Of a DNA stretch of 5,867 bases, positions 1-5,506 are shown in pieces. The stretch lies in NCBI GenBank assembly GCA_016840425.1, contig JAEOSI010000150.1, positions 1-5,867 on the forward strand, given 5' to 3'. The notes below the pieces were generated by a model. That model was not told the origin of the DNA. It saw nothing but the letters and a program-made list of their open reading frames with translations, and did no database searches. The stretch's first letter is position 1. Every line of letters begins with the position of its first letter. A program made the translations under genes and the position numbers. This DNA comes from Candidatus Wukongarchaeum yapensis. GTDB taxonomy: Archaea > Asgardarchaeota > Wukongarchaeia > Wukongarchaeales > Wukongarchaeaceae.

Positions 1-80
1 CCCCACAACAAACCCCACAAATACCCCCACAACAAACCCCACAAATGCCCCCACAACAAACCCCACAAATGCCCCCACAA
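1..80 (+). repeat. 24-bp coding tandem repeat, CCCCCACAACAAACCCCACAAAT(A/G), about 3.4 copies visible
   Basis: Units at 1-23 (lacking the first base), 24-47, 48-71 and a partial unit at 72-80. The only difference among full units is the last base (A vs G; Ile vs Met). The array probably continues beyond the window edge. Confidence 0.95.
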
Positions 81-257
81 CCACAGCCACAAGAGGGGTA
101 TGTGCCTACGTGGGAAAGGGTTGAGACCGGTCCTAGTGAGGCTCCGAGTACTTCACCAGCTCCATCAATGGGATTTTCTAATCCAAGGATGGAGATGTTA
201 AATGAGCTTCAACAAAAACTTGCAAGAAGACGGAGAATGATTGAAGGGTTAGAATGA
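3..257 (+). CDS. 3' part of a gene truncated by the window edge: Pro/Gln-rich low-complexity protein ending in an amphipathic/basic helix (WH2/Ena-VASP FAB-like)
   Basis: The frame of the 45..257 ORF is open back to base 3: PQQTPQI-PPQQTPQM-PPQQTPQM-PPQPQPQEGYVPTWERVETGPSEAPSTSPAPSMGFSNPRMEMLNELQQKLARRRRMIEGLE*. The ATG at 45 lies inside the repeat, so it is probably not the true start. The repeat period (24 nt) is a multiple of 3, as expected for coding sequence. Confidence 0.75.
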   Translation, partial: PQQTPQIPPQQTPQMPPQQTPQMPPQPQPQEGYVPTWERVETGPSEAPSTSPAPSMGFSNPRMEMLNELQQKLARRRRMIEGLE

Positions 258-2191: not shown

Positions 2192-3463
2192 TTGGAGGTA
2201 AATACGACGGAAAGACAAGTTGAAAAGGTGATAGAAGCGGTCGATGCTCAAAACAAGTGGCGGAAACTGGAATGTATAAACCTCATTGCCAGTGAAAACG
2301 TGATGAGCCCTCTTGCAACAAAATTATATGCTAGTGATTTTATGCATCGGTATGCCGAAGGAGATATTGCTCATAGACATTATCAGGGTGGAAAATACGT
2401 CGATGAAGTGGAAGGATTAGCCGTCGAATTGGTGAAGAGACTGTTTAACACTACTTTTACGGATTTGCGCCCTTTAAGCGGATCGATGGCTAACCTAGCA
2501 TGTTTTAAAGCTTTAACGGAGATTGGGGGTGTATTATTTACTTTATCAGTACCTTGTGGGGCACACATTTCCCACCAAAATTTTGGAAGCGTAGGAATTG
2601 TAGGGGGGAAAGTTAAACCTTACCCCTTTGACATAGAAAGAATGAATATAGATGTTGATGCTACCATAAGACAAGTTAAGAAAGAAAAACCCGATCTTCT
2701 TGTTTTTGGAGGAAGTGTCTTTCTTTTCCCTAACCCACTAAAAGAGCTTAGGGAAGTAGCTGATGAATTAGGTATCCGAATAATGTATGATGCTGCTCAC
2801 GTTTTAGGCTTAATAGCCGGAAAAATATTTCAAGACCCTTTACGTGAAGGAGCAGACGTAGTCTCTTCATCTACACACAAGACGCTGCCAGGACCCCAAG
2901 GTGGACTGATATTTACAAACGATGAAGAGCTTTTTGAACGGTTAAAAACTGCGGTTTTCCCAGGGATTGTGAGTAATCATCATTGCCATAGGATTCCTGC
3001 TTTGTGTATAACTTTGCTCGAAATGCAAAAATATGGAGAAGAATATGCAAACAATATTGTGAGAAATGCTCAAAAGCTTGCAGGCGCCTTGGTTGAAAGA
3101 GGTTTTAAAGTTCTTGCAGAATCTTATGGTTTCACTCAATCACATCAAGTTCTTCTAGATGTTTCCTCTTTAGGCGGCGGGAGAAAAGTAGCAAAAGACC
3201 TTGAAAAAGCAAACATAATTGTTAATAAAAACCTCCTACCTTGGGACCCTTTAACCTCAAAGGAAAATCCTTCCGGTATAAGGATAGGGGTCCAGGAAAT
3301 GACACGATTCGGCATGGCATATAATGAGATGGATCAAATAGCTGAATTTATGGAAAAAATCTTGATCAAAGGAAAAAACCCTCATCATAAAAAAGAAGAA
3401 GTAATAAGTTTCAGAAAAGACTTTATCACGCCAAAATTTTGCTTTCAAAACGTGGAAATATGA
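2192..3463 (+). CDS. glyA: Serine hydroxymethyltransferase, archaeal type (PLP-dependent); exact start uncertain
   Basis: Motifs NLIASEN, RYAEG..R.YQG, GAHISH, YDAAHVLGLIAG, STHKTLPGPQGG (PLP Lys230, codon 2879-2881), SNHH, ANIIVNKN and PSGIRIGVQEMTRFGM. YQG, SNHH and GVQEMTR are typical of archaeal SHMTs. Confidence 0.97.
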   Translation: MEVNTTERQVEKVIEAVDAQNKWRKLECINLIASENVMSPLATKLYASDFMHRYAEGDIAHRHYQGGKYVDEVEGLAVELVKRLFNTTFTDLRPLSGSMANLACFKALTEIGGVLFTLSVPCGAHISHQNFGSVGIVGGKVKPYPFDIERMNIDVDATIRQVKKEKPDLLVFGGSVFLFPNPLKELREVADELGIRIMYDAAHVLGLIAGKIFQDPLREGADVVSSSTHKTLPGPQGGLIFTNDEELFERLKTAVFPGIVSNHHCHRIPALCITLLEMQKYGEEYANNIVRNAQKLAGALVERGFKVLAESYGFTQSHQVLLDVSSLGGGRKVAKDLEKANIIVNKNLLPWDPLTSKENPSGIRIGVQEMTRFGMAYNEMDQIAEFMEKILIKGKNPHHKKEEVISFRKDFITPKFCFQNVEI

Positions 3464-4113: not shown

Positions 4114-4236
4114 AGCCCCCGGTGGGATTTGAACCCACGACCCACCGCTTTCTCGCAACCCTCCTATTTTTTGGCTCCTCTAATACTCTAATCAAATTAC
4201 GAGGCGGTTGCTCTAACCAGGCTGAGCTACGGAGGC
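4114..4236 (-). tRNA. tRNA-Thr(CGT) with an intron at 37/38; CCA not encoded
   Basis: Minus strand folds as: acceptor GCCTCCG/CGGGGGC, D arm GCTC-AGCCTGGTTA-GAGC, anticodon stem ACCGC/GCGGT with loop CT-CGT-A^A, variable GGGTC, T arm GTGGG-TTCAAAT-CCCAC, discriminator U73 followed by TCA. Mature length is 75 nt before CCA addition. Confidence 0.97.
4150..4197 (-). other. 48-nt tRNA intron at the canonical 37/38 position
   Basis: Exon C32-U33-C34-G35 pairs with intron CGAG as the 4-bp central helix. The 3-nt segments U36-A37^A and A-A^A38 occupy the two cleavage-bulge positions, and removal restores a 7-nt anticodon loop. Confidence 0.93.
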
Positions 4237-4390: not shown

Positions 4391-5506
4391 CTAACTTTTA
4401 TTACTTACTTTTTGAACTGCTGTACGAAAATCTTTTAGCTTTGTTAAACATTTTGTAGCGCTTCCTACTACCCGCCTCAGGCTTATTTTCTTTCCTAATT
4501 TTTTAACAAAAGATATTCTTGAGGGGGTGTTTAATGGTCTTAAAAGATAATTTAAAGCTAAATACTGAGCGGTCATCATATCTGTTTTTTCATAATGGGC
4601 TATTCTTTTTTTATAGTGAATGGGCGTCAAAGAATTCCCTATAAGTTCCGTCATAGTAGCTTCCGGTCCTGTAAATCTATTTGTATCGACCCGCGAACAC
4701 AGTTTTTGACCAGTATTAATCATCTCTTTAAAAGTTTGTATTATCGTGTCTCCCATCTCTCTTAGATTGAGGATTGATGCGAAATGTTGAAGTGTGTACT
4801 GGCTTGTCTCCCTTAACGTAGGTATAAGCCTTGATGGCTGAGGATTACACCCTCTCAAATTAACAAAATTTCTTACCTCTTCTTCCATAGCCATAATCAA
4901 CCATAAAATCGTAGTGTCTTCATCACCTTTTTCCAGAGATATACGAGCATTCCCGGTCCATTTTTCAATCCTTTTCTCGTAAATCTTTGACCGTCCAGAA
5001 ATCCTCTCAGGTGTAAAAAACATCTCTCTTATTTGCTCCTGTATTTCTCCAAAAACTCCCTCCTCTTTATTCTCAATAGGTACTGCCTCGCTCACCGCCC
5101 ATTCCAATTCCGGCGTTATATTATCAAATAATAACGCGGATACTGGCGCATATATCTCATCTATAATGTAACCTTTATGCACAGCTGTACGGTTTATTCT
5201 CGTACTCATTTGACCATCATAATAAGCTTCTTCCTTTTCTAACATGACCACTAAAAGATCTATATCGGAACCTTCATGGACCTCTCCCCGTGCCATTGAA
5301 CCGATCAAAGACACGCTAATAGCACCTTTATTTAAAAGCTTTCTCGCTTTTTTTATAACAAGATCAGGAACCTTCACTTTATGACCTTGATTATTTTCTA
5401 AATCATCGGAATTTAAACCCATATCAAGTTTTTTCCTCTTTTCTGGTAACATACCCATCTCTTCTTTTCCCACTTTTTTACGATTAAAAAGCTTCAAATA
5501 AAGCAT
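4391..5506 (-). CDS. Nucleotidyltransferase of the DNA polymerase beta superfamily (MNT/KNTase-like N-terminal domain plus helical C-terminal region), substrate unknown
   Basis: Motif LIGSMARGEVHEGSDIDLLVV matches hGS-x-a-RG-x(5)-SDxD (G69-S70, D81, D83), with a candidate third carboxylate in YIIDEIY (D116). The start could be M1 (5506), M17, M19 or M29. Confidence 0.85.
   Translation of the reverse strand: MLYLKLFNRKKVGKEEMGMLPEKRKKLDMGLNSDDLENNQGHKVKVPDLVIKKARKLLNKGAISVSLIGSMARGEVHEGSDIDLLVVMLEKEEAYYDGQMSTRINRTAVHKGYIIDEIYAPVSALLFDNITPELEWAVSEAVPIENKEEGVFGEIQEQIREMFFTPERISGRSKIYEKRIEKWTGNARISLEKGDEDTTILWLIMAMEEEVRNFVNLRGCNPQPSRLIPTLRETSQYTLQHFASILNLREMGDTIIQTFKEMINTGQKLCSRVDTNRFTGPEATMTELIGNSLTPIHYKKRIAHYEKTDMMTAQYLALNYLLRPLNTPSRISFVKKLGKKISLRRVVGSATKCLTKLKDFRTAVQKVSNKS

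Follow-up and report, generated by a model that had tools for sequence, protein, structure and literature searches.

Does an Asgard archaeon make an actin-filament regulator of the Ena/VASP kind? The question is raised by the first bases of a 5,867-nucleotide stretch of DNA from Candidatus Wukongarchaeum yapensis (the whole of which is hereafter referred to as the window), where an open reading frame (ORF) closes with a short basic helix. The initial annotation of the window likened this helix to the F-actin-binding motif (FAB) of Ena/VASP proteins and to the WH2 helix, and suggested that, if the host were an Asgard archaeon, the protein might regulate actin filaments. Eukaryote-like actin, profilin and gelsolin are found in Asgard archaea, some of which crawl with actin-filled protrusions (PMC13716822). 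In a 2026 paper on Asgard crawling, formins and Ena/VASP are listed with the filament polymerases that serve migration in metazoans and amoebozoans, and the motility of Asgard archaea is regarded as an ancient and simpler form. The Asgard literature that we searched covers profilins, gelsolins that contain an internal WH2-like motif, small GTPases, roadblock proteins and crawling based on actin. The actin regulators named in it are profilin and gelsolin only, with no filament-binding adaptor, bundler, polymerase or elongation factor, and neither the tail family presented below nor a free-standing FAB-like or WH2-like protein was found described there.

A gene split at a coding repeat

The three elements on which the initial annotation was built, a Pro/Gln repeat, a Ser/Pro linker and a C-terminal helix, are all present in the window (Table 1). 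Codons 62-81 of the ORF (bases 186-245) translate exactly to RMEMLNELQQKLARRRRMIE; the statement that the protein ends in these residues was nearly exact, as GLE follows before the stop codon. The window is an entire contig (C155 of the host genome, G000); the ORF therefore runs in from beyond base 1, and just the C-terminal third of the protein falls inside. The contig breaks at this base because of a tandem DNA repeat within the coding sequence. The repeat, which a looser 48-nucleotide period extends to base 92 (TRF), encodes a Pro/Gln arm of the form PQQTPQ[I/M]P. Among three close relatives it varies in both copy number and wording, and hence the arm varies in length. In a second genome of the same genus (G001), the same gene (91% identity) is also cut at a contig start within the repeat.

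A k-mer search of G000 found the Pro/Gln repeat on no other contig, and the 5' part was sought among contig ends as open frames running out in Pro/Gln. On the minus strand of contig C244, a 170-amino-acid ORF with a GTG start ends in ...QEEAITTPITAKPQPQPQP at the contig end. The two pieces are bridged by a metagenome contig from JGI (Ga0209427_10092805; L058): its first 54 nucleotides are identical to this end of C244, and beyond them the frame stays open across a shorter Pro/Gln arm and reaches the same tail, the C-terminal region being 98% identical in protein to the window ORF. Since L058 overlaps both pieces, the window ORF and the C244 ORF constitute one gene of about 260 codons, and the full gene is, on the evidence of these overlaps, split over two contigs. 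The part upstream of the window, which was out of reach of the initial annotation, is thereby recovered. Upstream, the gene is flanked by an ORF whose translation, inspected by eye, resembles a class I lysyl-tRNA synthetase. For annotation, the consequence is that assemblers regularly split the tail gene at its coding repeat; this split, together with the roadblock-like head tentatively assigned below, is new here.

Table 1 Coordinates of features in the window and in related loci (G000, host genome; G001, genome of the same genus; positions without a prefix refer to the window)
Feature	Position	Strand	Evidence or remark
Gene 3' end, 84 codons and TGA	3..257	+	ORF reading, frame 3; 5' part on G000:C244:1-510 (-)
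Tandem DNA repeat	1..92	+	24-nt unit CCCCACAACAAACCCCACAAATGC, 3.4 copies over 1-81, 98% matches (TRF)
Short block EGYVPTW between repeat and linker	93..113	+	Identical in three close relatives
Ser/Pro-rich flexible linker ERVETGPSEAPSTSPAPSMGFSN	114..182	+	Variable among close relatives; pLDDT 61-74
Conserved end helix PRMEMLNELQQKLARRRRMIEGLE	183..254	+	Tail profile, alignment, AlphaFold2; encloses 186-245
TGA stop codon	255..257	+	ORF reading
149-amino-acid ORF	331-780	+
ACT-ACT-HAD phosphoserine-phosphatase-like gene	792-2081	-
Serine hydroxymethyltransferase	2192-3463	+	Pfam SHMT, 242 bits
tRNA match, 123 nt	4114-4236	-	Rfam RF00005, 53.6 bits, full model
371-amino-acid nucleotidyltransferase-domain protein	4391-5506	-	NTP_transf_2/Pol-beta type near N terminus, long C-terminal part
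SWIM-like gene	L026:2045-2458 (+), L027:521-931 (-), L028:2417-2725 (+)		Matching ORFs in L029, L048-L050
Two-helix variant	L100:992-2005 (-), L105:799-1758 (+), L106:1225-2127 (+)
N-terminal motif proteins	L097:63-1511 (-), L102:4-1410 (-), L108:881-1738 (+)
Complete actin of G001	L059:1501-2652		384 amino acids
Reordered actin ORFs	G000:C97, G000:C20; G001:C7, G001:C20		L019, L020, L022, L023 (G000); L060-L063 (G001)

The end helix is conserved across the phylum

We built a hidden Markov model (HMM) from 15 tails of other Asgard lineages, leaving out the host genus, and searched it against the 32,911 six-frame ORFs of G000. The window ORF was the sole match (E = 9.6e-7, 29.4 bits), the next-best ORF of the genome having an E value of 2.1; a single genomic match of this strength indicates that the helix is more than chance. 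The window tail aligns without gaps to the 15 other members, and the family consensus is [S/P]-x-R-x-x-[L/M]-x-x-E-L-[K/Q]-x-x-[L/F]-[A/E]-[R/K]-R-R. In an AlphaFold2 prediction based on a 17-row tail alignment, residues P61-L83 form one continuous helix (block-mean pLDDT 87-97). The linker that precedes it contains the element GFSN, which is common to a member of Asgard family f31 (AGFSN in the member from genome G306).

The last 28 residues of the protein are identical in three close relatives. When the window is compared with G001, the 24 tail codons carry two synonymous and no non-synonymous changes, whereas the 30 codons before the tail (93-182) carry four synonymous and five non-synonymous changes, which identifies the tail as the constrained part of the protein. 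Across Asgard families, the tail is also the only part that can be aligned, as the heads differ. Homologues thus retain the helix, which the initial annotation had named as a point on which its proposal depended: the motif is phylum-wide, and conservation of the protein is concentrated in the helix. By profile, alignment and codon changes, the window helix genuinely belongs to a motif that is kept at the extreme C terminus of a phylum-wide protein family.

The tail is found on diverse heads

The motif was detected in 121 of 400 Asgard genomes (full tail profile, E <= 0.001). Its usual carrier is a protein of 140-220 amino acids, composed of a coiled coil of about 70 amino acids, a variable Pro-rich arm and the end helix. 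This unnamed Asgard family, an example of which is NCBI Q6363_001435 from Candidatus Njordarchaeota, has the same end helix behind a variable Pro-rich arm as the host protein; the two differ in the head, which is the coiled coil in the former and an orphan globular domain of about 150 amino acids in the latter. A profile of the coiled-coil head (A1) places the family in several Asgard families, most strongly in f12 (18/19 genomes) and f17 (4/5), and almost all ORFs that it recovers end in the motif, the exceptions being weak head-profile matches. The weak tblastn matches in other Asgard genomes were likewise all small proteins with a helical head of about 70 amino acids, a Pro-rich linker that varies in length and a basic helix at the extreme C terminus. 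A canonical coiled-coil member of 182 amino acids is present in the same order as the host (genome G002). In both G000 and G001, the window gene is the only tail-bearing gene.

Other proteins carry the tail on different heads. In several lineages, proteins of about 415-515 amino acids bear it at the C terminus, behind an Arf/Gtr1_RagA-like GTPase (Pfam Arf, 67-86 bits), a coiled coil and a Pro-rich linker, and still other proteins bear a tail-like helix at the N terminus or internally. On these architectures, the tail is a portable element that would work independently of the head, be it a coiled coil, a GTPase or a roadblock-like domain. The tail was not detected in Asgard families f4 (0/31 genomes) and f14 (0/12 genomes), and gelsolin was found in 20/21 f4 and 7/7 f14 genomes sampled; all 30 best gelsolin loci are without the tail. 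Our search for a gene neighbour common to all subfamilies found none.

Several loci of the family have features of their own. A SWIM-like gene of about 100-140 amino acids (CxC...CxH) lies directly downstream of the canonical gene in seven loci, which belong to f17 and f31 only. A two-helix variant of 300-340 amino acids comprises a coiled-coil head, a PPS-rich stretch and a Lys-rich end, and its two motifs are an internal GGMS[I/V]R[S/M]AMM[A/S]EIK followed by GGL[T/V][K/S]KMNKLLD[D/T/A]KFQ. N-terminal copies of the motif (for example, MSLISELKEVLARRRKIL) are found on unrelated proteins of about 470-480 amino acids without a Pfam family, two of which had no usable match in ESM-Atlas.

An orphan head in the host genus

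In the host genus, the orphan domain of about 150 amino acids replaces the usual coiled coil of about 70. The A1 profile has no match in G000, G001 or G002, and tblastn of coiled-coil heads against G000 gave noise only. The orphan domain itself has no Pfam family match and no relative in 40 related genomes; a word-index search gave no match, and 1.84 billion representatives, searched exhaustively with phmmer, yielded just a 55-amino-acid fragment of the domain itself. Its nearest language-model clusters in ESM-Atlas are of the Robl_LC7/MAPKK1_Int (LAMTOR3-type) family, with scores of 0.90-0.91, and this family is set on 80 of the best 100 matches, an Asgard cluster included. G000 encodes at least eight roadblock paralogues; aligned to eight of them by hhalign, the head gave a weak, in-register match (E = 0.072). 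A single-sequence AlphaFold2 model of the head was unusable (pLDDT 36).

The head thus resembles roadblock/LC7, MglB and LAMTOR domains (PF03259, PF08923) in its language-model features and, as judged by eye, in its size and its alpha-beta-beta-alpha-beta-beta-alpha pattern; it differs from them in having no Pfam match, a weak hhalign score and no homologue among the 1.84 billion representatives. We tentatively regard it as roadblock/LC7-like, an assignment made from language-model features only. Roadblock domains are dimerization modules. If the assignment holds, the design of a pairing head, a flexible arm and an end helix is therefore kept in the host genus. We know of no roadblock protein that bears a Pro-rich arm with an end helix of this type.

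Comparison of the tail with Ena/VASP and WH2

In human VASP, the FAB comprises residues 259-278, and the WH2-like GAB comprises residues 223-APGLAAAIAGAKLRKVS-239 (PMC10340426). The VASP FAB aligns to the window tail without gaps, with 6/16 positions identical; its match to the Asgard tail profile, gapless over 16 profile positions, amounts to 10.4 bits. This score was reached by 1/5000 composition-preserving shuffles when the profile was made without the host genus, and by 3/5000 when all rows were used. The resemblance to FAB put forward in the initial annotation is thus real and depends on the order of the residues; it covers few positions, and the motif was selected post hoc among many. 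Because FAB was picked out of many known helical motifs, the shuffle P value overstates the case, and ten bits over 16 residues are far below database significance. A likeness of this length is not evidence of common descent. A search of PDB sequences with the tail profile returned nothing below an E value of 0.59.

What the Ena/VASP FAB and the Asgard tail have in common is a short helix-prone [L/M][M/L]x[E][M/L]xxxLARRR[K/R], accompanied by a Pro-rich region and an oligomerizing element. The order of the parts is reversed in the host protein, in which the head comes first, the arm second and the helix at the very end. Furthermore, Ena/VASP proteins contain an EVH1 domain, a GAB/WH2 element and a C-terminal tetramerization coil, and the host protein is without all three: its head has no Pfam family and its nearest features are roadblock-type, not EVH1, and the protein stops three residues past the motif, with no Pfam match to the coil (PF08776). 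Profilin-binding polyproline tracts (five or more Pro) are absent from the host arm. The longest Pro run is two in the window ORF, in the C244 end and in the bridging contig, and runs of 6-7 are seen in some other members of the family. The part of the VASP analogy that concerns profilin recruitment therefore has no counterpart in the host protein. The Pro-rich arm followed by a helix, in which the initial annotation recognized the layout of actin factors, stands; a polyproline run, an EVH1 domain and a tetramerizing end are absent. Membership of the Ena/VASP family is ruled out by the missing EVH1 domain and tetramerization coil; the host protein is at most an analogue of the FAB part.

The WH2 reading had to be abandoned. 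Pfam WH2 (PF02205) gave no match up to E = 10 in four full proteins and 17 tails, and the VASP GAB scored -1.0 bits on the tail profile, with 4166/5000 shuffles equal or better. The tail does share with WH2 helices (thymosin-beta4, WASP and VASP GAB) an amphipathic R-x-x-[L/M]-[L/M]-x-x-L start, followed by Leu and basic residues. However, the WH2 motif LKK[T/V] is represented in the tail by LARR, with the final Thr/Val missing, and WH2 is composed of a short helix and an extended strand, whereas the 23 residues of the tail are predicted to form one helix.

The actin system of the host

The actin proposal presupposed an Asgard host that encodes actin and profilin, and such is the case. The host genome (2.16 Mb, 92% complete) has genes for a canonical actin, which scores 444 bits to Pfam Actin, for a profilin, whose 28 bits exceed the cut-off, and for gelsolin domains; the complete actin of G001 is 98% identical to that of the host. 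Outside the host genus, canonical actin was found in 9 of the 10 tail-bearing genomes checked (5/5 in the Njord-type f17, 2/2 in f7 and 2/3 in f31). As actin is near-universal in Asgard archaea, however, its co-occurrence with the tail says little.

Beside the canonical actin, both genomes of the host genus have two long ORFs (582-754 amino acids) in which actin-matching stretches are reordered: the match to actin residues of about 80-374 lies upstream of, and in frame with, the match to residues of about 12-90. From this order, they look like circularly permuted actin-related proteins.

Candidate partners of the end helix

The arrangement of the family can be accounted for if the window helix were the 'hook' of a module, portable among Asgard proteins, in which a disordered Pro-rich arm ends in a basic amphipathic helix of about 23 residues. 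The end helix would dock a paired head, on its flexible arm, to a conserved cellular partner. Among named partners, the most likely would be the actin filament, bound in the way that the Ena/VASP FAB binds it; an oligomer with at least two hooks would, in that case, tether or bundle the filaments or bring a GTPase-platform domain to them. We offer this docking module, with the actin filament as its likeliest named partner, as a tentative reading. Its general part is the firmer one: the end helix is probably a protein-docking helix of some kind, and both its mean hydrophobicity of about 0.1 and the net charge of 0 to +1 in the largest subgroup favour a protein over a lipid partner. Actin filaments in particular are a somewhat unlikely partner when taken on their own. 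The strongest form of the claim is unlikely: in it, the helix would genuinely bind actin filaments, as the archaeal counterpart or precursor of the Ena/VASP FAB, and its carriers would be the first factors known from prokaryotes to tether, bundle or elongate actin. Were it true, a small-GTPase switch would be connected directly to the actin cytoskeleton in the host genus and in the GTPase fusions, before the origin of eukaryotes. The family is thus an unproven candidate, put forward on sequence grounds, for the missing archaeal actin regulator.

The known fusion partners of the tail are parts of the small-GTPase system, not actin binders, and the presence of the tail on Arf/Rag-like GTPases and on a roadblock-like head points to small-GTPase or membrane platforms as much as to actin. 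The helix may accordingly dock on a conserved non-actin protein of the small-GTPase, roadblock/longin or ESCRT machinery, a reading that we consider doubtful without dismissing it. The partner could be, for example, a GTPase platform or an MIT-type helix-binding domain, which would gather GTPases, regulators and coiled-coil adaptors. The fusions to Arf/Gtr1_RagA-like GTPases in several lineages, the proximity of the host head to Robl_LC7/MAPKK1_Int clusters and the roadblock paralogues of G000 are all consistent with such a hub, although no neighbouring gene is conserved in all subfamilies. ESCRT-III MIM motifs, too, are C-terminal helices that follow a flexible linker. The MIM1 consensus at the C terminus is (D/E)xxLxxRLxxL(K/R), with Leu residues spaced i, i+4, i+7; in the tail they are spaced i, i+4, i+8, and Glu replaces the Arg of the consensus, on which grounds MIM1 itself was rejected.

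It is less likely still that the helix, basic and amphipathic as it is, targets membranes and anchors the head to the cell membrane, as a functional analogue of the hypervariable region and lipid anchor that Asgard GTPases lack. Asgard small GTPases are without prenylation signals (PMC10933270), and a basic, amphipathic helix that ends a long flexible linker, on GTPases and on a GTPase-platform-like head, would suit such a role. HeliQuest-type figures are mediocre. For the window tail, muH is 0.47, H 0.09, z +2 and D 1.11, and D ranges over 0.36-2.15 in the family; Njord-type members (D 1.7-2.2) lie above the HeliQuest-type threshold of 1.34, but the largest and best-conserved subgroup has D values of 0.36-0.71, its low net charge and acidic residues after the helix. 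Mean hydrophobicity is about 0.0-0.3, bulky residues are scarce, and position-specific conservation, which includes the Glu, is tighter than is usual for lipid-binding helices. Together, the mediocre figures and the tight conservation favour a protein partner. Self-pairing of the helix, or its pairing with its own head (coiled-coil closure or auto-inhibition) with no outside partner, is highly unlikely: a heptad-like hydrophobic stripe (L5, L8, L12, I19 and L22) and the coiled-coil head of most members would allow it, but the tail type is unchanged when the head is a GTPase or roadblock-like, and it is also found at the N termini of unrelated proteins.

Docking of a paired head to a protein partner thus being the preferred reading, the conserved, portable helix that resembles the VASP FAB is a concrete candidate to test as an Asgard filament-binding adaptor. 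Binding to actin would link GTPase signalling to the cytoskeleton in archaea, and binding to membranes or to a GTPase hub would explain the localization of Asgard GTPases that have no lipid anchors; either outcome bears on eukaryogenesis.

Other features of the window

The ORF directly downstream of the tail gene encodes a protein of 149 amino acids with a very acidic C-terminal tail. It has no Pfam family match, and it is also found downstream of the tail gene in the bridging metagenome contig L058. ARAGORN reported no tRNA in the window; the Rfam match listed in Table 1 covers the full model, and this tRNA probably carries an intron. The phosphoserine-phosphatase-like and serine hydroxymethyltransferase genes form a divergent pair of ordinary serine/glycine metabolism.
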